DNA of 64,000 nucleotides from Candidatus Bathyarchaeota archaeon. Lineage in GTDB: Archaea; Thermoproteota; Bathyarchaeia; 40CM-2-53-6. Made by a program: the position numbers and the translations under genes. The notes beneath the pieces were generated by a model. The model saw nothing but the letters and a program-made list of their open reading frames with translations, did no database searches and was not told the DNA's origin. Location: positions 3,183 to 67,182 of the forward strand of contig VBBR01000032.1 in the NCBI GenBank assembly GCA_005881615.1, written 5' to 3'. Of this stretch, positions 16,224-28,889 are shown piece by piece (position 1 is the stretch's first letter; every line of letters starts with the position of its first letter).

Positions 16224-17354
16224 CTAGATAATGTCTCGGGTGAGAGCTTCTCGGAACTTGACCCTGCAGTCTTGGCACTGGAAGAGGCCGATCAACACGT
16301 TCTTCTTGGATTTGCCGCCTTTGAGTTCCCAGACCTTTGCAGCCTTGGGAACGTCAGCGCCGCACTTTGGACAGACAACCTTGTAGAACTGGCTTGGCAG
16401 CTGTAGGCTTGGCTGGGCCATGTCGGGTCCTGAGGGGATGCCTGGGACAGTTTCGGTGCCAGGGATTGTTGGTGAGATCTCGCTCTCTGTTGTTGCGATC
16501 GCTGAGGAAGCTTCGAGAGTAGGCATGTCATCGACGACTTTGACGACAAGCGCGTCAGCAACATCCTCAACGTATTCCTGAGCTGGTGCTGCATTGAAAG
16601 AATCTTCGACGATGGGTGTGCTTGCTTGAGTCAATGGAATAATTGGGGCTGCGATGGTATCCTCAGAGACTACGGATAGTGGTTGAGCCTGCTCTTGGAC
16701 CGGTGGGGTGAACACCGGAGTCGGAACGGAGACTGGAGCGCTAGTCGGAGCATTGTTTGTTTGAGGATTCGTCCAGGTTGAACCGTTACTGGATGGCTGG
16801 GGCGGGACGGGTGTTGTCGGGGGAGCCCATGGTCTCTCGGAGACAATGGAGCTCGCAGCGAACTTGACGCTTGGCGAAGTGGGCGTCGGTGCTGGTGCTT
16901 GTTGTGCTGGAGATGGTGTCTGTTGTGGAGCATTCCGTGCCCATTCCTCGATGAGAGTTCGTGGAGCCGGTGGATTGGCCTGTTTGAAGTCGGCTGGTGC
17001 TAGGGGTCTGGTCTCAATGTGGGTTAGGACCTCGATCATGTCTTTGATTTCTTCGATGCTGTGGAGGTTTCGCTGTAGGAGGCCCTTGAACTCTTCGCGT
17101 TGTCCGCGGTATTCTTGTTCGCTGACTTCACCGGTAACGTATTTCGTTTCTAGATTCAGCAGTCGTTGTGGTGTGCTGCCGATCTGGTCCTTTGTCTCTT
17201 TGAGGTGCTCGTTCAACGTGTATCCTAGCACGTTGATTCTGTCTTGGAGGTCTTGTGAGGCTCGTCCGTATTCCTCGTATATGGTCCGCATTTTTTCTTT
17301 GTAGCCGTTGATCTCGCTGATTAACTTCTCTAGAGTTAGATCGTTTAGTACCAT
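16224..17354 (-). CDS. coiled-coil / Pro-Thr-Ala-Gln-rich linker / C-terminal C4 zinc-ribbon protein
   Basis: 376 aa: N-terminal ~120-aa heptad-like segment, ~170-aa low-complexity P/T/A/Q-rich region, C-terminal KVVCPKCGADVPKAAKVWELKGGKSKKNVLIGLFQCQDCRVKF (CxxC-x19-CxxC). Divergently transcribed from the cdv array. Confidence 0.6.
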   Translation of the reverse strand: MVLNDLTLEKLISEINGYKEKMRTIYEEYGRASQDLQDRINVLGYTLNEHLKETKDQIGSTPQRLLNLETKYVTGEVSEQEYRGQREEFKGLLQRNLHSIEEIKDMIEVLTHIETRPLAPADFKQANPPAPRTLIEEWARNAPQQTPSPAQQAPAPTPTSPSVKFAASSIVSERPWAPPTTPVPPQPSSNGSTWTNPQTNNAPTSAPVSVPTPVFTPPVQEQAQPLSVVSEDTIAAPIIPLTQASTPIVEDSFNAAPAQEYVEDVADALVVKVVDDMPTLEASSAIATTESEISPTIPGTETVPGIPSGPDMAQPSLQLPSQFYKVVCPKCGADVPKAAKVWELKGGKSKKNVLIGLFQCQDCRVKFREALTRDII

Positions 17355-17689: not shown

Positions 17690-18394
17690 GTGTCAAGAAC
17701 CCACTTGGAACGCGTCCCAAGTAAACCAGCTTTCAAGATAGAAATGTCATACAAGTCCATGAAGAATTGGGACCGAGAGCAGAGAGAGCCTTTGCTCTCG
17801 AAGGTCACCGATCGCATCCACCACCAAGAACCGCTCAAGGAGAAGATCTCACAGGTCGTCTACAAGCTCAAAGTACAACAGAATAGGCTTGAAGGAGCCA
17901 ACCTCAAGACACAGCAACACGACAAGTCACTGTTCGACAAGTGCGTCCAAGCCCAGATGTCCAAAGACACCATGCGCAGCGCAATGTACGCCAACGAGAT
18001 CGCGGAGATCCGGAAAATCGCCAAAGTTACACTCAGAAGCGAACTAGCACTCGAACAAGTCGTACTCCGACTCGAAACAATCCAGGAATTCGGCGACGTC
18101 GCAGCCATGATGGGCCCAGTCGCAGGAGTAGTACACCAGATCAAGAACCAGATCGCGGGAGTCATCCCACAAGTCGGCTACGAACTAGGCGAGATCTCCG
18201 ACACACTAAACAGCGTAGTCATGGAAGTTGGCGAAGCAACGGGACAAGGCTATGATCTGGAGGCATCAGGTCCAGAAGCCTCGAAGATCATTTCTGAAGC
18301 CAACACCATAGCTGAGACACGGATGCGTGAGAAGTTCCCGGAGTTACCCTCTCCAACCGCCACTGCAGAACACGAGATAGTGATTCCAAGGTAG
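17690..18394 (+). CDS. ESCRT-III / Snf7-family protein (CdvB paralog)
   Basis: Snf7-like helical core (...ANEIAEIRKIAKVTLRSELALEQVVLRLETIQEFGDVAAMMGPVAGVVHQIKNQIAGVIP...), closely related to the ORFs at 19196 and 22831. No C-terminal winged helix. Confidence 0.75.
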   Translation: MSRTHLERVPSKPAFKIEMSYKSMKNWDREQREPLLSKVTDRIHHQEPLKEKISQVVYKLKVQQNRLEGANLKTQQHDKSLFDKCVQAQMSKDTMRSAMYANEIAEIRKIAKVTLRSELALEQVVLRLETIQEFGDVAAMMGPVAGVVHQIKNQIAGVIPQVGYELGEISDTLNSVVMEVGEATGQGYDLEASGPEASKIISEANTIAETRMREKFPELPSPTATAEHEIVIPR

Positions 18395-18429
18395 GAGTAA
18401 CTCCGACAACATTTTTTTGGTGCAAAATC

Positions 18430-19143
18430 ATGCCAATAACACTTGAACAAGTCCGACGATTCCTCGGCAGAACCCTCCAAGACCCCTACGGCAGAGCCTT
18501 CGGCAAAGTCGTAGGCATCTCCGCCAACCTCAGAGACGAGGTAACCGGAGTAGGAATAGAGGAAGGCAACGGAGAATTCCTCCAATGCCCCGGCGACAGA
18601 GTCACCATAACAGGTGACACTCTCGTCCTGGCACCGGCCTGGAAGGTGGAAGCAGAGGAGTTCCGGAAAGAATTCGACATCGTAACTAGACGCCTCCGAG
18701 CCCTTGACGAGCTGTTCAGTGTCGGCGACATCCAGAAGGACGTCTACGAGGATCTAAGGAAACAGCACGAGGACGCGATCAACGAGCTGAAAGGCAAGAG
18801 AAAGGAGATAATCGACACTCTGGCTCAACGAACCAGCGTTCTCAACACGCAGTTGCGACAGTTACAGACACACCTCGCAGGCAACAAGATGTTGCATGCG
18901 TCCGGCGAGTTCGACGATATGAATTACAAACAGGCTAGCGACGCTATCGACAGCGGTCTCGTCCGCGCGATGGCCGAGAAGAAGGACGTTGAGTCAATCT
19001 ACAGTTACCTACAGAAGCTCGACGCGGCCCAAGCGCCCCCCGCTGCACAACAGCCCCAACCCATAGCTCCAACCCCTCAACCAACCACAACAACCTCCCC
19101 CGCGAGAGACCCTGTTCTAGTACTTCACGTGAGGGAGACTTAG
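18430..19143 (+). CDS. cdvA: CdvA (PRC-barrel + coiled-coil cell-division protein)
   Basis: N-terminal PRC-barrel-like segment (LGRTLQDPYGRAFGKVVGI...GVGIEEGNGEFL...), a long coiled coil, and a Pro/Gln-rich tail. Located between two cdvB-type genes. Confidence 0.75.
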   Translation: MPITLEQVRRFLGRTLQDPYGRAFGKVVGISANLRDEVTGVGIEEGNGEFLQCPGDRVTITGDTLVLAPAWKVEAEEFRKEFDIVTRRLRALDELFSVGDIQKDVYEDLRKQHEDAINELKGKRKEIIDTLAQRTSVLNTQLRQLQTHLAGNKMLHASGEFDDMNYKQASDAIDSGLVRAMAEKKDVESIYSYLQKLDAAQAPPAAQQPQPIAPTPQPTTTTSPARDPVLVLHVRET

Positions 19144-19195
19144 GAGGATTCAAGGGCTGTTCCGAAAATTCGAGGAGAAAGTCCATCCTATTCCG

Positions 19196-19960
19196 TTGAA
19201 AGAGCGCATAGCGCAAGCTTTGTTCCGACTCGGATCACAGAAAGAAAAACTAGAGCACATGTCCGCTAGGCTCCAGCAACGCGACAAAGAGATGTTTCAG
19301 CGATGCATCGGCGCTCAGCTCTCCAAGGATCCCTCTCACGCAGCTCTCTACGCCAACGAGTGTGCTGAGATTCGGAAAATGGCTCATCTTACGCTCAGCA
19401 GTGAACTGGCCCTCGAACGTGTCATCCTCCGAATGCAGACGGTCGAAGAGTTCGGCGACATTATGGCCCAGATCGCACCGGTCATCGGAGTCGTACGCGA
19501 GACACGCGGTAGAATTGCAGGTGTCATTCCCGAAGTGGCCAACGAGCTTGGCGAGGTCAACAACATGCTAAGTGACATGAGCATGGAAACCGGCCAGGTC
19601 GGCGAAGACCAGGGCTTCGACATGAGCGCCTCAAGCGCCGAAGCACGCAAGGTTCTCGAAGAATCCAGCGCCATTGCATCCCAAGAAATGAAAGAACGAT
19701 TCCCGGAGCTGCCAATGCCTGAGACCCGCCAACCAGTTCGAGAAGCCGCAACACGCGCCCCAGAACAAAGAATCCCCATCGCCATAACCACAAACGGCTC
19801 AGAAGAAGCTCCCCTGGAAGACAGGCTCCTAAGCTACATCAAATCACACAACGGAGAACTCAGCCTCAACAACTGCTCCGCAGAGCTCCTGGTCCCGAGC
19901 GACGACATCAGGCGTTCCCTACAACGGCTCAAGGATGACGGAAAGATAGTCATGGACTAG
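19196..19960 (+). CDS. cdvB: CdvB (ESCRT-III with C-terminal winged-helix-like domain)
   Basis: Snf7 core plus a C-terminal ...LSYIKSHNGELSLNNCSAELLVPSDDIRRSLQRLKDDGKIVMD winged-helix-like module, as in CdvB proteins that bind CdvA. Confidence 0.8.
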   Translation: MKERIAQALFRLGSQKEKLEHMSARLQQRDKEMFQRCIGAQLSKDPSHAALYANECAEIRKMAHLTLSSELALERVILRMQTVEEFGDIMAQIAPVIGVVRETRGRIAGVIPEVANELGEVNNMLSDMSMETGQVGEDQGFDMSASSAEARKVLEESSAIASQEMKERFPELPMPETRQPVREAATRAPEQRIPIAITTNGSEEAPLEDRLLSYIKSHNGELSLNNCSAELLVPSDDIRRSLQRLKDDGKIVMD

Positions 19961-20255
19961 ACGGGAGATAAGTGCTCCCGTCCAAGCCCTTCAGTATCAC
20001 AAGAGGGGACAAGTAATCTCAGCATCCGAAGAACTGGAATCGCTTGCAGTAAAATACGCGAAAGAAGCTATCGAGCTGGAGAGAAAAGGCTCCAAACGGC
20101 TTGCCGCAACAAAATACCAGCGAGCCATCGAAGTCCTCCTCAAACTATGCTCATTATACCCAGCCGCGGTTCAAAACAAGGTCTACACGGAACACGTAGA
20201 AGCATACAAGAAACGAATCCAAGAACTCCAGTCAGACGAACCAATAACTCATTCT

Positions 20256-21161
20256 ATGGATTCGACTGAGACCCGTGAGTCCAAGACCATCAAGCTCGAT
20301 CAGTGGGTCCTGACGGAGAAACCGGACATCAGCTGGAGCGACATCGCCGACCTTGAGAAGCCGAAACGAGCGATCGAAGAATCAATAATCTTCCCCGTTC
20401 GAAGACCGGATCTCTTCCCTCTTGGCTGGCCTCGAGGAATACTCTTCTTCGGACCCCCAGGTTGCGGAAAAACCCTACTCGCTGCCGCCATTGCGAGCGA
20501 GATCAAGGGGATGTTCTTCTGTGCGGACGCCGCTTCCCTAATGTCAAAGTGGCTTGGAGAATCCGAACGAAACGTCTCCCAACTCTTCACAAAAGCAAGG
20601 GAAGTGTCTGAGAACGGGCAACCAGCCATCGTTTTCATCGACGAAATAGACTCGTTAATGGGCGTCCGGGGGGAAGAGGTCGGCGGAGAAGTCCGCGTCC
20701 GAAACCAGTTCCTCAAAGAGATGGATGGCATCCTCGACAAGAACAAGAAATTCCACGTCTACCTCATCGGTGCAACAAACAAGCCGTGGGTCCTGGACGA
20801 GCCGTTCATCCGACGCTTCCAGAAGAGAATCTACGTTCCACTACCAGACGTCAAAGCCCGCATGGACATGTTCCAGATCTATGCCCAGAATCTGAAGTTC
20901 CAGAACAACGTGGACTTCGCTGAGCTAGCGCGAAGGACTGAAGGCTACTCTGGAGGAGATATTCGCGATCTGTTCCAGTCCACCCAGATCAAGGTGGTCC
21001 GCGACTTCTTCCAGCGTGGTGCCGCTAACGATCTCAACGCTATTCCAGACCCGATTACTATGGAGGATTTCGAGACCATCATCGTGGGCCGACGGCCAAG
21101 CGTCTCGCAGAACATCATCAAACGATACTTCGACTGGGACGAATCGTTCAAGGCATCATAG
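20256..21161 (+). CDS. cdvC: CdvC / Vps4-type AAA+ ATPase (ATPase core from the first canonical ATG; MIT domain encoded in-frame upstream, 19959-20255)
   Basis: Walker A LFFGPPGCGKTLLAAAIA, Walker B IVFIDEIDSL, a SRH region and a Vps4 C-terminal helix. Upstream in the same frame with no ATG/GTG/TTG: ...ISASEELESLAVKYAKEAIELERKGSKRLAATKYQRAIEVLLKLCSLYPAAVQNKVYTEHVEAYKKRIQEL, a clear MIT domain. Confidence 0.85.
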   Translation: MDSTETRESKTIKLDQWVLTEKPDISWSDIADLEKPKRAIEESIIFPVRRPDLFPLGWPRGILFFGPPGCGKTLLAAAIASEIKGMFFCADAASLMSKWLGESERNVSQLFTKAREVSENGQPAIVFIDEIDSLMGVRGEEVGGEVRVRNQFLKEMDGILDKNKKFHVYLIGATNKPWVLDEPFIRRFQKRIYVPLPDVKARMDMFQIYAQNLKFQNNVDFAELARRTEGYSGGDIRDLFQSTQIKVVRDFFQRGAANDLNAIPDPITMEDFETIIVGRRPSVSQNIIKRYFDWDESFKAS

Positions 21162-21174
21162 AGGATGAAAAGAC

Positions 21175-21645
21175 GTGAACCTTGACGGAACTGACCTACG
21201 CATCCTCGCGGAGCTCGTGGAGAACTCCAAACAATCCTATGTTGAGATAGGCCGCAAACTCGCCCTCCATCCCAACGTCATCGCCTACAGAGTCAACCGA
21301 CTAGAAGACGCCCACATTATCCGCGAATACACAACACTCATCGACTTCGGAAAGCTCGGCCTCTTAGAACAAGTCATCGTCGCCGCAAACTTCCCCAGCA
21401 GCCCCTCCAGAGAAGACATTCTGAAACAGATATGCGAGATCCCAGAAACCCTCAACGTCATCAGCTCCCTCGGAACCCCAGAAGGACTCGTCTTCATAGT
21501 CGCCCGCAACAAAGAGGTCGTAAACGCGGTCCTGTCAAAGCTCCGTTCAATGAACCTTGACATCGATTTCGCATCCTCAGTCATCAGGACCTATGACGAG
21601 GGACGCTTGGGAATGTTCCTCCGGTCCATGGCAGGCCCAGAATAG
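21175..21645 (+). CDS. Lrp/AsnC-family transcriptional regulator
   Basis: LDGTDLRILAELVENSKQSYVEIGRKLALHPNVIAYRVNRLEDAHII (HTH) plus a C-terminal RAM-like domain. Confidence 0.8.
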   Translation: MNLDGTDLRILAELVENSKQSYVEIGRKLALHPNVIAYRVNRLEDAHIIREYTTLIDFGKLGLLEQVIVAANFPSSPSREDILKQICEIPETLNVISSLGTPEGLVFIVARNKEVVNAVLSKLRSMNLDIDFASSVIRTYDEGRLGMFLRSMAGPE

Positions 21646-21659
21646 AAGGTCGATCCTAA

Positions 21660-22127
21660 TTGGAAAAGCCATCCTGGACCCCAATTGTCCTATCCGGCGC
21701 CATCCCACGAGAAGCCACGGACCTACTCGCAATTCTAGTGATTGGCATAGTAGCCCTCCAGGCGTCTCTTGCCGCAATAGGTCCAACAATCCCCGAGTCA
21801 CGACTCTGGCTCTCTCTCCTAGTTGTTCCACCGACATGTGCCCTAGCGTCTGTATCTACTACGACAAGACGGACGAAGGAGGAATTAGCCCTCTTCGCCT
21901 ACGGAGGCTCCGGCTGGCAGATTCTCCTACGCTACTTCATCAGAGGAGCGATCATTGCTCTGCTCGCATTCTCTCCAGTCCTGCTTCAAGAATTCCTCAC
22001 AACCACTCCGATGCTCGAACTAGCTACAACAGTGATCATTCTGTTGTTCGCAGGAGGTCTGTTCTATTCGCTACCCAGTCTTCGCCGAATACGATCCTCA
22101 TCGTTTGTTGAGCACTACAAGAGTTAG
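21660..22127 (+). CDS. small 4-TM membrane protein with FtsX/MacB-permease-like C-terminal signature
   Basis: RRTKEELALFAYGGSGWQILLRYFIRGAIIALLA resembles the FtsX-domain consensus (R.eiailkAlGas...il.qfl.E.l.l.l). Lacks the large extracytoplasmic domain of full-length FtsX/MacB. Sits 6 nt upstream of the ABC ATPase. Confidence 0.5.
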   Translation: MEKPSWTPIVLSGAIPREATDLLAILVIGIVALQASLAAIGPTIPESRLWLSLLVVPPTCALASVSTTTRRTKEELALFAYGGSGWQILLRYFIRGAIIALLAFSPVLLQEFLTTTPMLELATTVIILLFAGGLFYSLPSLRRIRSSSFVEHYKS

Positions 22128-22132
22128 CAAAC

Positions 22133-22828
22133 ATGCCATCTGTGATCGAAACAAGGTCAGTGGTCGTCGAATACCCTTCAGTCAAAGGGGTTCTGCGGCT
22201 CTACGAGCAAGGCGTTTCCTTGAAAGTGGATCAGGGAGACTTCCTCGCCGTCCTCGGCGGGTCTGGCTGGGGAAAATCAACACTCGTCAACGTAGTCTTG
22301 GGACTGGAGAAACCCATTCATGGGTCGGTCAGCTTTCGCGACCACGACGTCACACGGGAATCATTCGTAAAACGGTGTGCCTTGGTTAAGACAGCCGCCG
22401 TGTTTCAGCGTCCAACCGCGCTCCCGCAGATGACAGTTTCACAGAACCTGCACCTAGCCCTCTCGCTAGCGGGGGTCCCGAGAAAGGATCGAGATGAAAG
22501 GATCAAAGAAGCCCTCGCATTTTTTGGATTAGACAAGATCGAACGATCATACCCTGACGGGCTCAGCGCTGGCCAGCGAAGGCGAATCGATCTCGCAAGA
22601 GCTTTGGCCGTCAAACCCGAACTACTGGTGATCGACGAGCCGACGGGCGACTTAGATGGGTCCGCTACAAACCTGCTAATCCCTCTTCTAAGGGGACTAA
22701 ACCGGAACCAGGGAACAACAATTTTCATGACCACAGCACTGCCTCGTCAAGCGTCGCAAGCAAAGCACCAGGTGCATCTCAGACCGCCTTTGTACCTCAC
22801 TCCGGAAAACAGGATGATCGGAGACTAA
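22133..22828 (+). CDS. ABC transporter ATP-binding protein (FtsE/MacB/LolD-like)
   Basis: Walker A GGSGWGKST, signature LSAGQRRR, Walker B LLVIDEPTGDLD. Confidence 0.8.
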   Translation: MPSVIETRSVVVEYPSVKGVLRLYEQGVSLKVDQGDFLAVLGGSGWGKSTLVNVVLGLEKPIHGSVSFRDHDVTRESFVKRCALVKTAAVFQRPTALPQMTVSQNLHLALSLAGVPRKDRDERIKEALAFFGLDKIERSYPDGLSAGQRRRIDLARALAVKPELLVIDEPTGDLDGSATNLLIPLLRGLNRNQGTTIFMTTALPRQASQAKHQVHLRPPLYLTPENRMIGD

Positions 22829-22830
22829 CA

Positions 22831-23439
22831 ATGTTCCGCGACAATCCCTCATTAACCGACAGAATCCGGGAAGCGATCAAGCCGACACCGATGAAACAGC
22901 GGATCCAGTTCGCTTCCCACAAACTCCGTCTACAAACTACAAGGCTGGAGCGAAGCATTACCCAGATGGAATCACGAGACCAGACACTTCGAGATAAGTG
23001 CACCAAAGCACTGGAGGCGCGAGATACTCAAACCGCGACCGTTTTCGCAAACGAATGCGTCCAAATTCGAAAACTCATCAAGACATCCCTCCGAAGCCAG
23101 ATCTGCCTCGAACAAGCACTACTCCGCCTCGAGACGGTGGAACAGTTCGGCGACCTGGTCCACAGCATGGGCTCAGTCAAAGGACTCCTCGGCGCAGTAA
23201 GAGGCGAGCTAGAAGGCAAACTTCCCGAAATTTCAACAGGTATCGGCGATGTCGAAGACTCGCTAGAGAATCTCACGATGGAAATTGGGGAAGCAGTTGA
23301 CTCGGATGGGATGTCCATCCCGGTCAATGATGAATCCGCTCACATCTTGAAGGAGGCGGATCTTATGGCCGAGCAGAAGATGAAAGAGAAATTCCCTGAA
23401 ATTCCTCAGATAGCGAATCCGGCTCATCGAGTGAGGTAG
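22831..23439 (+). CDS. ESCRT-III / Snf7-family protein (third CdvB paralog, no winged helix)
   Basis: ...TVFANECVQIRKLIKTSLRSQICLEQALLRLETVEQFGDLVHSMGSVKGLLGAVRGELEGKLPEI... is colinear with the ORFs at 17690 and 19196. Confidence 0.75.
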   Translation: MFRDNPSLTDRIREAIKPTPMKQRIQFASHKLRLQTTRLERSITQMESRDQTLRDKCTKALEARDTQTATVFANECVQIRKLIKTSLRSQICLEQALLRLETVEQFGDLVHSMGSVKGLLGAVRGELEGKLPEISTGIGDVEDSLENLTMEIGEAVDSDGMSIPVNDESAHILKEADLMAEQKMKEKFPEIPQIANPAHRVR

Positions 23440-23557
23440 AATCTATCTGCTCTCTCCTGAGCTGGAGACGAAAGCTCTCCTCGGACGAAGTGTCAACGAC
23501 ATCTACGGCAGACTGCTAGGACGGGTAATCGGCATCGAGCGCAACCCCTTCGGAGAG

Positions 23558-24064
23558 ATGGAAGGAGTCCAGATAGAAGCGACAGGCGGAATTATTCTCA
23601 CAGCCAAAGCCAGGCAAATGGCCCTCACCCCGAAAACAATCACGATATCCCCGGAGTGGAAGCTTGAGTCCGAGGACATCATCTCCGAACTGACACTGTT
23701 GAGGAAGAGGATTGGTGCCCTGGAATCGTTGAAAGATTCGAGGGAGATTGACGGAGAAATCTATTCGGAGCTTCTCGAGTCGCAGAAGGCCGGCTACCTG
23801 GACAAGGTGAAACTGGCGAGCGCCCTGGTCGGCTCAATGCGATCTAGACTAGCCGAAATCACTGGACAAATCACGAGCCTGACAAGATATCTTGTCAATG
23901 CGAAGCTTGATCACAAGAGTGGGGAGCTTGACGAGGATTCTCTGAAACTCGCGCAGGGCTCTATCGAGCCGAGTCTTCGGCCTTTGATCGCGGAGAGAAA
24001 CGATCTTTCCCTGTCGATCAAAGTTGTCGAGCAGGTCCTGCCATCAAAGGTCAGCATTAACTAG
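23558..24064 (+). CDS. CdvA-like paralog (PRC-barrel + coiled coil); coding frame actually opens at 23435 with no canonical start before the ATG at 23558
   Basis: The in-frame upstream segment SPELETKALLGRSVNDIYGRLLGRVIGIERNPFGEMEGVQIE aligns with the CdvA N-terminus (MPITLEQVRRFLGRTLQDPYGRAFGKVVGISANLRDEVTGVGIE). The downstream part aligns with the CdvA PRC/coiled-coil region (ISPEWKLESEDI / LAPAWKVEAEEF). Confidence 0.6.
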   Translation: MEGVQIEATGGIILTAKARQMALTPKTITISPEWKLESEDIISELTLLRKRIGALESLKDSREIDGEIYSELLESQKAGYLDKVKLASALVGSMRSRLAEITGQITSLTRYLVNAKLDHKSGELDEDSLKLAQGSIEPSLRPLIAERNDLSLSIKVVEQVLPSKVSIN

Positions 24065-24984: not shown

Positions 24985-25698
24985 TTGAAGGCGTTTGTTC
25001 TTGCCGGTGGCGCGGGAACCCGGCTCTCACCGCTAACAAGCTACGTCCCAAAAGGAATGATACCTATAGCTGGCAAGCCATTCATCGATTATGTCATCAG
25101 CTATCTCGCGAGCCATGGAATAAGAAACATCATCATGTTGCTATCCGATGAGGATAGCGAGGTATATCGCAACCACTTGGACGATGGATCGAAGTACGGT
25201 GTCAACATCGGGTACAGCATCAGTCCTCGAACAGGCACCTCGAACGCGCTCAAAGACGCCAGTAGCCACATTGACGGAACATTCCTTGTCTACTACGGCG
25301 ATGTCCTCACAAGTCTCGACCTAACCGATATGATTCGGTTCCACAGGGAGAAGAAAGCCGTTTGCACAGTCGCACTAAGCACCGGCGTCCGAATCGATTA
25401 CGGCGTCGGACGAGTCGACAAGGATAACAGGATAGAATATTTTGAGGAGAAACCGGTGCTCAAGGATTATCCTGTCGCGATCGGTGTATGCCTCTGCGAG
25501 CCCTCGTTCCTAAAGTACTGTTCAAGCGGATCAGACATAGCAGCAAACGTCATACCAGCACTCGTCGCCAAAGGCGAACGAGTCTACGGATACCTAACGC
25601 CGGAACCACACCACGACATCGGATCATTCAAGCAGCTGGACGAGGTAAAGAAGATCCTAAAGACTCACAGCAAGACGCAGACAAAGAGTCAGAACTAA
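24985..25698 (+). CDS. sugar-phosphate nucleotidyltransferase (NTP_transferase family)
   Basis: MKAFVLAGGAGTRLSPLTSYVPKGMIPIAGKPFIDY matches the G-x-G-T-R-L...K-P-M/L signature of glucose-1-phosphate nucleotidyltransferases. Confidence 0.7.
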   Translation: MKAFVLAGGAGTRLSPLTSYVPKGMIPIAGKPFIDYVISYLASHGIRNIIMLLSDEDSEVYRNHLDDGSKYGVNIGYSISPRTGTSNALKDASSHIDGTFLVYYGDVLTSLDLTDMIRFHREKKAVCTVALSTGVRIDYGVGRVDKDNRIEYFEEKPVLKDYPVAIGVCLCEPSFLKYCSSGSDIAANVIPALVAKGERVYGYLTPEPHHDIGSFKQLDEVKKILKTHSKTQTKSQN

Positions 25699-27098
25699 GT
25701 TATCCAGTGCGTCTCCTCAGCCGAATCCTCAACCACAAAACCAAGCTTGGCCATCCGATCGCGGATGCGATCAGCTGACTCGTAATCACGCTTGCTCCGC
25801 AGCTCGTTCCGCAGCTCCAGGACGAAGTTCACCAGCTCGGAAGCCCGGTTCTGCGCAACAGTCTCGGTCTCCAACACGCCAAGCACAGAGCCCAAGTCCT
25901 CCAAAGCACCAATTATCGCGTTCCCAGATTCGGCCTTCGGATTTCTTGCCTCCTCCTCTGCCAGCCCGACTATTCTGATGTAGGCAGCGAGCGCTCCCGG
26001 CGTGTTGAAGTCATCGTCCATGGCCTTGAAGAACTCGTCTCGCGCCTCGTCCAACGGTTTCAGAACCGAGTTTATCTCATTCTCGTTCCGAGTTATCTTG
26101 TCTCGAGCCAGCGCGAGCTGATCGTGCGCCCGCCTGAACCTTCTCGCAAGGCTAACCGCTTGCTGCAACGCCTCCTCGGTAAAGTCCAACGGACTCCTGT
26201 AGTGCGTTCCTGCGTAGAACACACGCAAACCCGGAGTGCCAACCTTTCTGACCATGTCCCGTATCGGGATAAAGTTCCCGAGCGATTTGTGCATCTCTTG
26301 TCCCTTGATGCTCATCAATCCGGTGTGAAGCCAATAGCGCGCCAATGGTTTCTTACCAGTCAGACTCTCCGCCTCGGCGATCTCAGCTTCATGATGAGGA
26401 AAGATGAGGTCCGAACCGCCACCATGCACATCATACGTTGGGCCAAAGTACGTTAGAGTAATCGCAGTGTCCTCGATGTGCCAGCCAGGCCGTCCCTTTC
26501 CCCAAGGACTCTCCCAGAATATCTCGCCAGGCTTCTGGCTCTTCCACAAGGCAAAGTCTCCAGGATTCTTCTTCCGCGGATCCGGATCAATCCGGTGAAC
26601 CGTAAGATCCGCAAGTTTTTGGTGGGAGAGTTTTCCGTAGCCTGGAAACTTGGAAATGTCGAAATAGACGTCTCCGTCAACCCTGTAAGCTATTCCCTTC
26701 TTGAGAAGTCCAGTGATCTGATCGAGGATTTCGGGAATATGATCCGAAGCCTTCGCGTACAGATTAACACTGTCCACGTGGAGTTCTTTCATGTCCTTGA
26801 AGAAAGCCCTCGCTAACCGATCGGCCAAAGCGAGCGGCTGTTCTCCTATATCGTGAGCCTTGTTGATGATCTTATCGTCAACATCGGTAATGTTGAGCAG
26901 AAAGAAGAGACTGAAGCCCTTCCTCCGCAAATAGCGGGCGATGATATCGTAAGCGACGTAGGTCTTCCCGTGGCCAATATGGGACACATCCCAGACCGTT
27001 GGGCCACAGACAAACATGTTCACCCGGTTGGCTCGGATAGTCTCGAACTTGTCCAGTTTCCGCGTCAGCGTATTGTAGACTCGAAGCTCAGAAGACAT
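25695..27098 (-). CDS. cysS: cysteinyl-tRNA synthetase
   Basis: Class I motifs: CGPTVWDVSHIGHGKTY (HIGH), KMSKS-like EMHKSLGNF; overall length 467 aa. Confidence 0.9.
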   Translation of the reverse strand: MSSELRVYNTLTRKLDKFETIRANRVNMFVCGPTVWDVSHIGHGKTYVAYDIIARYLRRKGFSLFFLLNITDVDDKIINKAHDIGEQPLALADRLARAFFKDMKELHVDSVNLYAKASDHIPEILDQITGLLKKGIAYRVDGDVYFDISKFPGYGKLSHQKLADLTVHRIDPDPRKKNPGDFALWKSQKPGEIFWESPWGKGRPGWHIEDTAITLTYFGPTYDVHGGGSDLIFPHHEAEIAEAESLTGKKPLARYWLHTGLMSIKGQEMHKSLGNFIPIRDMVRKVGTPGLRVFYAGTHYRSPLDFTEEALQQAVSLARRFRRAHDQLALARDKITRNENEINSVLKPLDEARDEFFKAMDDDFNTPGALAAYIRIVGLAEEEARNPKAESGNAIIGALEDLGSVLGVLETETVAQNRASELVNFVLELRNELRSKRDYESADRIRDRMAKLGFVVEDSAEETHWIT

Positions 27099-27160
27099 CG
27101 GATCTATCAGCGCGGAAACCTCACAGCCATTTCACTCAAGCTAGTCCTCTATAACAGGCT

Positions 27161-27658
27161 CTAACTGGTTGGAAGCTTGCCCTGACCCTGCTTGGCTTCT
27201 GAGGAATGGCTCTTCTCGGATTGGATATTGCTCCAGGCCTTCGAAAGCATCTCCTTCTCGTTCGGGTACGACAAGGTATGAAGAGCCTTCTCGTACGGCA
27301 TCCACTCCATCGCATCATGCTCCGTCCCCACCTTCGCATCAGCCTGATCAGTCTCAAAGAGAAAGAAATGGACAGTCTTGTCGTAAGTCTTCGCACGGAA
27401 CCCGAACTGGTACTTGATCGCGCCAAGCTTCCCATGCAGCTTCACCCTGCTCACACCAGTCTCCTCACGCACCTCCCTCATAGCCGTCGTGACCTCGTCC
27501 TCCCCCTCCTCGATCAAACCCTTCGGCAAACACCACACACCTCTCTTATTGCTCGTCAACAGCAGAAAAAGCGGATTATCCTTGTCCCAGCGATAGACGA
27601 CTCCCCCAGCTGATGTAACCCGGATCCTCTGCCTGGGCTGCATTCCGCCCCCGTACAT
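27161..27658 (-). CDS. NUDIX hydrolase
   Basis: Nudix box GLIEEGEDEVTTAMREVREETGV (G-x5-E-x7-REUxEExGU). Confidence 0.75.
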   Translation of the reverse strand: MYGGGMQPRQRIRVTSAGGVVYRWDKDNPLFLLLTSNKRGVWCLPKGLIEEGEDEVTTAMREVREETGVSRVKLHGKLGAIKYQFGFRAKTYDKTVHFFLFETDQADAKVGTEHDAMEWMPYEKALHTLSYPNEKEMLSKAWSNIQSEKSHSSEAKQGQGKLPTS

Positions 27659-27680
27659 GACTACACTCTACGCTCTGCGA

Positions 27681-28889
27681 CTATAATTCGATATCTTTCG
27701 ACAAAGGCGTGATGTTTTCCGAAGGAGAACCAACAACCACAATGTCCTCTATCCTGATACCACCCCACTTGGGCTCGTAGAGCCCTGGCTCGATCGTCAC
27801 CACGGATCCTTTTCTCAGGTTATCCTTGCCGTACAGAGAGAGATACGGCCTTTCTCCAATAGTCAGTCCCACTCCATGACCGAGGCCGTGCATGAACCCA
27901 TGAGTCCGCGCTTCTTTGTTCCCCTTGACCAGTTGTCTCGCCGTTGGGTATCCTTTCCTCTCAAAGATCTTGCAGGCATTTGCCATCATGTCCTTGCAGG
28001 GAACCTGCTCCTTCACCATGTCGAGGGCTGATGTCTGGACCTCGAGAACGGCGTCATACATTTCCTTAATCTTCTTCGGCGCGGAACCGAACAGGTAGGT
28101 CCGAGTCAAGTCATGCCAGTAACCATCCGGCTCAGAGGGAAATATGTCGAAGACAATAGGCTCACCAGCTCGGACAATATCTTCGTCTTCACCTCTATAG
28201 TGAGGGTCACTCGATCTCCTGCCTGGCGCGAATATCGTGTCCTCCGGCGCGACCAAGTTCTGCTCGGAAAGCGACCTTCCGATAACCTTCTTGACGGTTC
28301 CAACACTCAAGGGCGTTGACTTGTAAGATACCCTCTTTCCATTGACCTTTGCTCCTCGTAGAAACCGGAGCGTGTCTTCCACGACTCGGATGGTCTTCTT
28401 TCCGAGAACTCTCAGCCTTTCGACCTCCCAACGATCCTTCGTCTCACGTGCAGCTTCGATGATCGTAGGCGACTTTTCCCCTGTAATCTTCACGCCCTTT
28501 CTGCGAAGAGCATCGATCATGTGCAGTGTATTGGACACGTCATTTCTTCCAGCCAGAATTATGGACCCGTGAAGTCCCTCGTCCTTCATGATTTTCTGAT
28601 AGAATCGGATCCTGGCCTCATCCCGGTCATACTTGCTAGCGATCCGCTCGTATCCATAGTCCGAGTAGGTCTTGATGTTGCGAACCTTTCCTTGGCGCGC
28701 GCTGCCCACGTCGATGTTGCTTACTATGAGCGTTGGGTCATGTGATCTTCGTTTCAGAAATATTCCCCCTCTCGGCAGAGAGGTTCCTGCCGCGTACCGA
28801 AGGTCTGGGTTTCCGACCGTTGAATCTCCGAAGACTATGATTGAATTGAGATTTCTTTTTTCCATCTCCACGTCGAGATCTTTGATCAA
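27681..28889 (-). CDS. M24-family metallopeptidase (Xaa-Pro aminopeptidase / prolidase-like)
   Basis: HGLGHGVGLTIGERP and EPGLYEPKWGGIRIEDIVVV are typical metal-ligand regions of the pita-bread fold. Confidence 0.8.
   Translation of the reverse strand: MIKDLDVEMEKRNLNSIIVFGDSTVGNPDLRYAAGTSLPRGGIFLKRRSHDPTLIVSNIDVGSARQGKVRNIKTYSDYGYERIASKYDRDEARIRFYQKIMKDEGLHGSIILAGRNDVSNTLHMIDALRRKGVKITGEKSPTIIEAARETKDRWEVERLRVLGKKTIRVVEDTLRFLRGAKVNGKRVSYKSTPLSVGTVKKVIGRSLSEQNLVAPEDTIFAPGRRSSDPHYRGEDEDIVRAGEPIVFDIFPSEPDGYWHDLTRTYLFGSAPKKIKEMYDAVLEVQTSALDMVKEQVPCKDMMANACKIFERKGYPTARQLVKGNKEARTHGFMHGLGHGVGLTIGERPYLSLYGKDNLRKGSVVTIEPGLYEPKWGGIRIEDIVVVGSPSENITPLSKDIEL

Follow-up and report, generated by a model that had tools for sequence, protein, structure and literature searches.

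What might a small membrane protein and an ATP-binding cassette (ABC) ATPase be doing in the middle of a cluster of archaeal division genes? This question is raised by a 64,000-nucleotide stretch of contig VBBR01000032.1 from a Candidatus Bathyarchaeota archaeon (hereafter, the window), in which a gene for a 155-aa protein with four predicted transmembrane (TM) helices, called TM4 here, and a gene for an ABC ATPase lie among the genes of the Cdv/ESCRT-III machinery. An earlier note on this DNA had read the pair as an FtsX-type permease and an FtsE/LolD/MacB-type ATPase that might form an archaeal analogue of bacterial FtsEX. The results presented below bear out this reading in part. TM4 is probably a very diverged type VII ABC membrane domain without the extracytoplasmic domain usual in this family, the ATPase has an alanine in place of the H-loop histidine, and the pair occurs in a strictly conserved position within the cdv cluster of one soil lineage of Bathyarchaeia.

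A "TM protein and ABC ATPase" extension of crenarchaeal cdv operons was mentioned in one sentence by Ravi et al. (2024, mSystems 9:e00847-23, PMC11237479, Supplementary Text 2.2); therefore, the existence of the module is not new. No family definition, fold, phyletic range, Lrp gene, degenerate H-loop or functional proposal was given there, and Makarova et al. (2024, PMC10936438) do not mention the module in their survey of ESCRT systems. New here are the assignment of a fold, the observations that TM4 has no outside domain and the ATPase a degenerate H-loop, the inclusion of an Lrp gene in the insert, and the strictness of the synteny together with its narrow range.

Conservation of the pair within the cdv cluster

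Both open reading frames (ORFs; Table 1) were present, as were the strings KEELALFAYGGSGWQILLRYFIRGAIIAL, GGSGWGKST and LSAGQRRR quoted from them earlier. The spacer between the two genes, given as 6 nt in the earlier note, measured 5 nt (22128-22132). TM4 was identical to TMI17088.1, annotated as "hypothetical protein", and the ATPase was identical to TMI17089.1, both from a Candidatus Bathyarchaeota metagenome-assembled genome (MAG). Complete members of the TM4 family were 137-156 aa long, down to 26% identity. The median ratio of nonsynonymous to synonymous substitution rates (dN/dS) was 0.14 for TM4, 0.037 for the ABC ATPase, 0.028 for the downstream cdvB, 0.014 for cdvC and 0.012 for lrp, and by this measure TM4 was the fastest-evolving gene of the cluster. 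Given the kept ORF length and these ratios, TM4 is a genuine protein under purifying selection, and both genes are real coding genes. In one 191-aa protein from the search of representatives (P0257), the ~104 N-terminal residues of TM4 were followed directly by the beginning of the ABC ATPase; most likely, it is a frameshift or assembly artefact and not a natural fusion.

The four TM helices of TM4 foreseen in the earlier note were also predicted here. Two AlphaFold2 models built from different alignments (predicted local distance difference test, pLDDT, 81.5 and predicted TM score, pTM, 0.77; pLDDT 87.7 and pTM 0.82) shared one architecture: TM1 was preceded by a short N-terminal helix and joined to TM2 by a 7-residue loop, a cytoplasmic helix lay between TM2 and TM3, and a short outside segment led from TM3 to the fourth TM helix, after which came a C-terminal helix. 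Helices were placed at residues 19-38, 46-65, 68-80, 85-103(-113), 118-144 and 147-154. Both termini were predicted to lie inside, and Lys and Arg were confined to the predicted cytoplasmic segments, in keeping with the positive-inside rule. Conservation was concentrated in three of these segments: the N-terminus (MEKPSW.PI.LSG..PR), the helix between TM2 and TM3 (R.REELAL.AYG.S.WQ..LRY.LRG; residues ~66-84, nt 21855-21911) and the C-terminal motif (GG.FYS.PSLRR.RS..F.E.YK). The predicted outside loops, of 7 and 14 residues, contained no Lys or Arg and were the least conserved segments. Since only ~7 residues (39-45), variable in both sequence and length, connect TM1 and TM2, TM4 has no large extracytoplasmic domain, as had been supposed.

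The linkage of the pair to cdv genes was followed through 24 loci (22 from GTDB species representatives and two on metagenome contigs found via the ATPase), 80 further metagenome loci found by ATPase-specific patterns, the locus of the most distant TM4 member, P0270 (26% TM4 identity), and contigs labelled as bacterial. All 108 related loci examined, each from soil Bathyarchaeia, carried an Lrp-TM4-ABC insert, in which the gene of an Lrp-family regulator comes first, between cdvC and the cdvB/CdvA-like gene pair, as far as the contigs reach. In all of the first 24 loci, the ten genes came in one and the same order up to the limits of each contig, and the order was identical in the 80 further loci and in that of P0270. 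The Lrp gene was present in every locus, and the short CdvA-like gene was present in all loci reaching that far. The neighbouring genes had been taken for cdv genes, which was borne out for CdvC, three CdvB paralogues and CdvA-type proteins. The placement of the pair between cdvC and an ESCRT-III gene held on the downstream side, where cdvB begins 2 nt after the ATPase gene, but on the upstream side TM4 is separated from cdvC by the Lrp gene. By its predicted gene content, the locus is a cdv locus with clustered CdvA, CdvB and CdvC genes; membership of TM4 and the ATPase in the Cdv machinery is not thereby established.

Among 1.84 billion representatives, the TM4 family comprised 22 clusters (50% identity), all from soil Bathyarchaeia, and the pair was never found outside a cdv context, either in the exhaustive HMMER search or at the P0270 locus. 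Such strict linkage means that the pair is not a generic, widespread transporter. With its confinement to one soil lineage of Bathyarchaeia, the module does not represent a general counterpart of FtsEX in archaea. The same archaeal cluster was found on contigs labelled Verrucomicrobia, Dormibacterota, "bacterium", Limnocylindrales and Binatus (L012, L020, L022; P0190, P0221, P0283); these labels evidently reflect mis-binning and look like a case of contamination in soil MAGs.

The genes downstream of the cluster in the window encode an NTP-transferase (+), CysRS (-), a NUDIX protein (-) and an M24 peptidase (-). In loci L123, L125 and L126, the same four genes were inverted, and L001 contained different genes at this place. 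Synonymous sites were saturated across the divergence of the 108 loci. With the flanks inverted or replaced and the gene order kept, it may be concluded that the cluster stayed intact during rearrangement of its surroundings. The inverted block corresponded to 24985-28889 in the window, 5471-9515 in L123 and 10025-14089 in L125, and the synteny breakpoint coincided exactly with the point where the short CdvA-like gene ends.

Loss of the H-loop histidine and the exporter alternative

The ATPase matched PF00005, as predicted in the earlier note (Table 1). As regards its assignment to the FtsE/LolD/MacB type, the best NCBIfam model was that of FtsE (TIGR02673), but the score of 133.4 bits was half of the cutoff of 264.85, and DarD, PhnT2, CysA-type and other models scored within a few bits of FtsE. 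When the ATPase family profile was compared with PDB sequences, the best single-domain matches were nucleotide-binding domains (NBDs) of type VII systems (5xu1_A, MacB and YtrE), matched from end to end.

Most catalytic elements were intact. Walker A (GGSGWGKST, residues 42-50, nt 22256-22282) contained a Trp that was invariant in 17 aligned members; the signature LSAGQ was at nt 22562-22576, and Walker B with the catalytic Glu169 (LLVIDE) was at nt 22622-22639. These motifs were conserved in the family together with the A-loop Tyr14, the Q-loop (Q92) and the D-loop (GDLD). However, the H-loop His was replaced by Ala202 (nt 22736-22738) in all 17 aligned family members. The family motif was TTA(L/I)PR, as against (A/V)THD in E. 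coli FtsE, LolD, YbbA and MacB, and P204-R205, which follow Ala202, were also invariant (residues 202-205, nt 22736-22747). In HlyB H662A and MalK H192 mutants, loss of this His strongly slows hydrolysis and leaves ATP-dependent dimerisation intact. Considering this enzymology and the presence of Ala202 in every aligned member, ATP binding and dimerisation would be expected in the TM4-associated ATPase, and hydrolysis would be expected to be slow. By analogy, the enzyme may be slow and switch-like, with attenuated hydrolysis.

Two other ideas about the ATPase were discarded. Its tail (HLRPPxF...) was considered as an MIT-interacting motif for CdvC; this segment aligned with the last core strand of FtsE and LolD, and only PP.[FL] was conserved in it. 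A role in a defence system was considered as well, and the PADLOC matches were to generic ABC and AAA proteins only.

If the pair has no connection with division, it could be an ordinary small exporter or housekeeping transporter of a lipid, peptide or metabolite, regulated by Lrp and hitch-hiking in the cdv cluster after a single insertion between cdvC and cdvB in the ancestor of the lineage; it would then have been kept because operon breakage is costly, and not for any work with the Cdv proteins. The three genes do resemble an insert with its own regulator in a cdvA-B-C-type cluster, and an Lrp gene would fit a small regulated transporter in a shared operon just as well. The lineage is a narrow one, with 22 species-level genomes, the sources annotate the ATPase as "multidrug/lipoprotein export ATPase", and the rate of evolution of TM4 is several times that of the cdv genes. 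An insert of this kind is difficult to reconcile with a gene order that is invariant in 108 loci despite saturated synonymous sites, an inverted four-gene block and replaced flanks, or with a pair that was never found outside cdv. With coupling distances of 5 and 2 nt, the pair belongs to the transcription unit that runs from cdvC to cdvB. An ATPase deprived of its H-loop His is a poor candidate for a high-turnover pump, and neither a conserved outward-facing surface nor a substrate-binding domain was found. We consider an ordinary exporter rather unlikely.

The predicted fold of TM4

In type VII ABC membrane domains, each subunit is laid out as four helices, and a coupling helix connects TM2 with TM3. 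Both models of TM4 had four TM helices with the N- and C-termini inside, a helix in the coupling position and a C-terminal cytoplasmic helix. The predicted bundle, with its coupling and minor helices, is similar to that of MacB, LolCDE, HrtBA, YtrEF and Spr0694-0695, which constitute the type VII or "mechanotransmission" class, and conserved segments could also be placed in correspondence: R.REELAL.AYG.S..Q of TM4 with ERTREIGI..A.GA....I, and Y..PS.RR...S.F with.PA.RAA.LDP..AL. To our knowledge, the characterised type VII members all have a periplasmic or extracellular domain of 100-250 residues (Sabre/Porter) that carries the function. TM4 differs from them in its ~7-residue TM1-TM2 loop and in a sequence likeness that lies below HMMER detection.

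The models were searched with Foldseek against 350,542 PDB chains. With both models, type VII ABC membrane domains filled most of the top ~35 matches; these included chains of FtsX, LolC, LolE, MacB, HrtB, YtrF and Spr0695. The best match was FtsX 8x61 (E 0.04, probability 1.0, TM score 0.53-0.57), and unrelated helical membrane proteins reached a Foldseek probability of ~0.1 only.

A remote likeness was also found at the level of profiles. Comparison by hhalign of 145 TM4 sequences with 16 FtsX domains (from E. coli and diverse plasmids) gave P = 0.0015 and a score of 26.5 over 72-115 columns in the expected register, with an alignment that spanned the coupling helix, TM3, the fourth TM helix and the C-terminal P(S/A) motif. 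Block-shuffled decoys scored 13.9 +/- 2.7, and the real score was attained by one of 150. With the six E. coli FtsX sequences only, P was 0.011-0.042. The "FtsX-permease signature" ascribed to KEELALFAYGGSGWQILLRYFIRGAIIAL thus amounts to a remote, sub-threshold likeness in profile and predicted fold, and no significant match was obtained.

Several results weigh against a type VII assignment. The search with Pfam FtsX (PF02687), on which the earlier note had staked its reading, gave no match for the window TM4 at E <= 1; among 17 diverse TM4 members, the best E-value was 1.8, in one member only. The TM4 family profile found no FtsX, MacB or LolC chain among PDB sequences at E <= 10. The hhalign probability was just 17%, and no Foldseek match reached E <= 1e-3, all being at or above 0.04. 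NosY, an ABC-2 (type V) permease, gave a comparable TMq of 0.58-0.64 with the better (second) model, and P0270 had a sub-threshold ABC2_membrane_5 match (E 0.0027). By the criterion of the Pfam family itself, TM4 is to be placed outside Pfam FtsX on its sequence. The exhaustive HMMER search of 1.84e9 proteins likewise recovered only the orphan TM4 family and no FtsX-domain protein.

These results would be expected if TM4 were not FtsX-like at all and were instead a truncated ABC-2 (type V)-like permease or a fold of its own that tethers the ABC ATPase, in which case the likeness would be that of a generic four-helix bundle with an amphipathic cytoplasmic helix. In addition to the NosY (7o0y, 7o0z and 7znq, from NosDFY) and ABC2_membrane_5 matches, ABC-2 permeases have a similar acidic motif after a TM helix, (E/R)E..G..E.L, which was picked up by hhalign. 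However, ABC-2 subunits have six TM helices, whereas TM4 has four, with the coupling and C-terminal helices of type VII. NosY matches were absent with the first model, while type VII chains prevailed with both. In hhalign, five E. coli ABC-2 permeases gave P = 0.16 over 34 columns, as against 0.0015 over 72-115 columns for FtsX, and the best single-domain matches of the NBD were type VII NBDs. We consider this alternative reading of TM4 unlikely. The type VII fold has moderate support, and TM4 is probably a very diverged membrane domain of this type that lacks the usual extracytoplasmic domain.

Scanning TM4 against Pfam, NCBIfam and PADLOC turned up nothing meaningful. An OST3_OST6 match (E 0.22) and an exosortase XrtS match (E 0.007; 16 bits against a cutoff of 145 bits) were noise. 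The only PDB matches of the family profile, to ribosomal L27 and a dehydratase, were rejected (E > 0.5). So was P0267, the only large protein in the exhaustive search, a 1541-aa FG-GAP/MAM repeat protein matched in a low-complexity Thr-rich stretch. An HMM of six E. coli FtsX domains recovered no genuine FtsX-domain protein from the 3204 ORFs of the window and related loci, which left none for a comparison within the lineage.

A possible role and the surrounding genes

The pair may form a minimal ABC complex, most likely (TM4)2(NBD)2 of the type VII kind, acting with the Cdv/ESCRT-III machinery; we regard this proposal as evenly balanced. The tie between the pair and division is gene order and nothing else, which counts against the proposal, as does the narrow range described above. 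Considering that the pair is absent elsewhere and is probably co-translated with cdvC, lrp and cdvB, a Cdv-linked role is the best guess.

Such a complex would lie in the membrane and have the architecture of MacB, FtsX and LolCDE, the extracytoplasmic domain having been lost or never present. Each protomer would contribute four helices, the TM2-TM3 coupling helix and a C-terminal minor helix, and the conserved cytoplasmic elements would presumably dock the ATPase. ATP binding would shut the NBD dimer. In MacB-type proteins, closure of the NBD dimer is thought to zip the TM bundle. Because the TM4 bundle would stop at the outer surface of the membrane, the output could not be an outside domain, and with slow hydrolysis the complex would be a switch gated by ATP and not a fast pump. 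Since it is on the cytoplasmic side that the surfaces are constrained, plausible outputs would be an altered cytoplasmic or membrane-embedded face that Cdv proteins sense, or an influence on the bilayer itself. The complex could then serve as a membrane-embedded anchor or regulator or as a local lipid handler, acting at the membrane or its cytoplasmic face in this soil lineage of Bathyarchaeia. In a more specific and unlikely version, a stripped-down FtsX/MacB-type complex with attenuated hydrolysis would have been recruited as a dedicated membrane component of the Cdv system: an ATP-gated anchor, checkpoint or lipid remodeller for ESCRT-III filaments.

It is very improbable that the pair is a true FtsEX analogue in which TM4 relays an ATP-driven change across the membrane and thereby activates an external envelope-remodelling factor, such as a hydrolase of the S-layer or pseudomurein type, where the cell divides. 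In favour of such an analogue, the ATPase has FtsE as its best NCBIfam model, TM4 has FtsX as its best Foldseek match and the pair sits in a division operon. Against it, TM4 lacks the TM1-TM2 domain through which FtsX acts in this way, its outside loops are short, uncharged and least conserved, no hydrolase or secreted partner gene is found in the conserved cluster, the FtsE equivalog cutoff is missed by half and the H-loop His is gone. The mechanotransmission suggested earlier is thus not supported in the FtsEX-like form that involves an external partner.

The pair can be compared with FtsEX (8x61, 8i6q, 8tzj, 8hd0, 8w6i). In both cases, separate adjacent genes for an ATPase and a four-TM protein are linked to division genes; the best Foldseek matches were FtsX chains in which the TM part alone was modelled (E 0.04, TMq 0.53-0.57), and the ATPase is ~30% identical to E. 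coli FtsE. In bacteria, the extracytoplasmic domain of FtsX binds EnvC, PcsB or RipC. TM4 has neither this domain nor a Pfam FtsX match, the ATPase has Ala for the H-loop His, the permease gene precedes the ATPase gene, and the partner machinery is ESCRT-III/Cdv rather than FtsZ and peptidoglycan hydrolases. No secreted or hydrolase gene that could encode a coupled partner of the EnvC/PcsB/RipC/CwlO type was found in the conserved cluster. On its sequence features, the pair is not an FtsEX orthologue.

All characterised type VII systems known to us (MacB, LolCDE, FtsEX, HrtBA and BceAB) work via an outside domain. A natural minimal version without this domain would reveal what the four-helix core and the ATPase do alone. 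If a complex of this kind was indeed recruited as a dedicated Cdv component, the type VII transmembrane core is able to work without any extracytoplasmic domain, and type VII complexes were coupled to cytokinesis independently in bacteria (FtsZ) and archaea (ESCRT-III). The attachment and regulation of Cdv/ESCRT-III filaments at the archaeal membrane are poorly understood, and CdvA is the sole membrane adaptor of which we are aware; an additional membrane-side component has a concrete candidate in the conserved membrane ATPase pair that is translated between cdvC and cdvB. The analysis also provides a family name and features for ~200 "hypothetical" proteins. Its value is reduced by the narrow range and uncultured state of the lineage, and by gene order being the only link between the pair and division.

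The genes of the conserved cluster are listed in Table 1.

Table 1. Genes of the conserved cdv cluster in the window.
Product	Position (nt)	Strand	Matches and remarks
CdvA-like protein with zinc ribbon	16224-17354	-	PF18822 1e-7 and weak zinc-ribbon matches; upstream end of conserved cluster
CdvB paralogue	17690-18394	+	CdvB1/B2 1.5e-66
CdvA	18430-19143	+	PF18822 3e-20; NF041007 2.6e-29
CdvB paralogue with C-terminal extension	19196-19960	+	NF041008 CdvB; CdvB1/B2 1.4e-53
CdvC (Vps4-like AAA ATPase)	20016-21161	+	NF041006 CdvC 1e-134
Lrp/AsnC-family transcription regulator	21175-21645	+	HTH_AsnC-type 1e-10; HTH_24
TM4, 155-aa four-TM membrane subunit, TTG start	21660-22127	+	Orphan family
ABC ATPase (NBD), 231 aa, ATG start	22133-22828	+	PF00005 2e-29
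CdvB (ESCRT-III/Snf7) paralogue	22831-23439	+	Snf7 1e-9; CdvB1/B2 5.6e-44
Short CdvA-like coiled-coil protein	23558-24064	+	PF18822 CdvA 4e-9; downstream end of conserved cluster

From cdvC to the last cdvB, the genes were separated by 13, 14, 5 and 2 nt, and GGAG was located directly upstream of the ATG of this cdvB. These distances and the GGAG give the layout of a single, translationally coupled unit, the genes of which are probably co-translated.

The gene complement was richer than that of the classical cdvABC operon. Three CdvB paralogues were encoded in the region 17690-24064, and only the middle one had a C-terminal extension. Residues 5-254 of this protein matched positions 25-259 of the 260 positions of the NF041008 profile; the match thus continues through the C-terminal end of the CdvB model and is read as including the winged-helix part. 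Three CdvA-type genes were found at the cluster, encoding one full CdvA, one short CdvA-like protein and one zinc-ribbon fusion. The fusion, a 376-aa protein transcribed divergently, consisted of an N-terminal CdvA-type coiled coil, a low-complexity linker of ~200 residues rich in Pro, Thr, Ser and Ala, and a C-terminal CxxC...CxxC zinc ribbon. Wherever a locus extended far enough, the gene for this fusion occupied the same position, and in four related loci (L001, L002, L125 and L126) its neighbour was an Alba gene. According to Makarova et al. (2024), the extra CdvA-like proteins of Bathyarchaea are encoded outside the cdv locus; here, in contrast, one such gene abuts it. No tRNA genes were found by ARAGORN in the whole 64-kb window, and a scan for sigma-70 promoters and terminators was uninformative for an archaeon.

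The start of CdvC was unusual. Its AAA part could be called from ATG 20256. The MIT-coding stretch continues this frame upstream to about 20016, but no ATG, GTG or TTG precedes it in frame (window 19950-20256). A canonical start was likewise absent in 49 of 69 related loci, and because it is missing, CdvC lengths have been called as 255, 301, 373, 382 or 399 aa. The codon of a conserved Ile/Val just before "SASEELESLAVK" was ATC in 51 loci, GTT in eight, ATA in three, ATT, ACG and GTG in two each, and GTA in one, with a conserved GGAGG/GAGGGG motif ~8-10 nt upstream of it. This pattern suggests that translation of CdvC begins at a non-canonical AUC codon at window position 20016, which might be a form of translational control.

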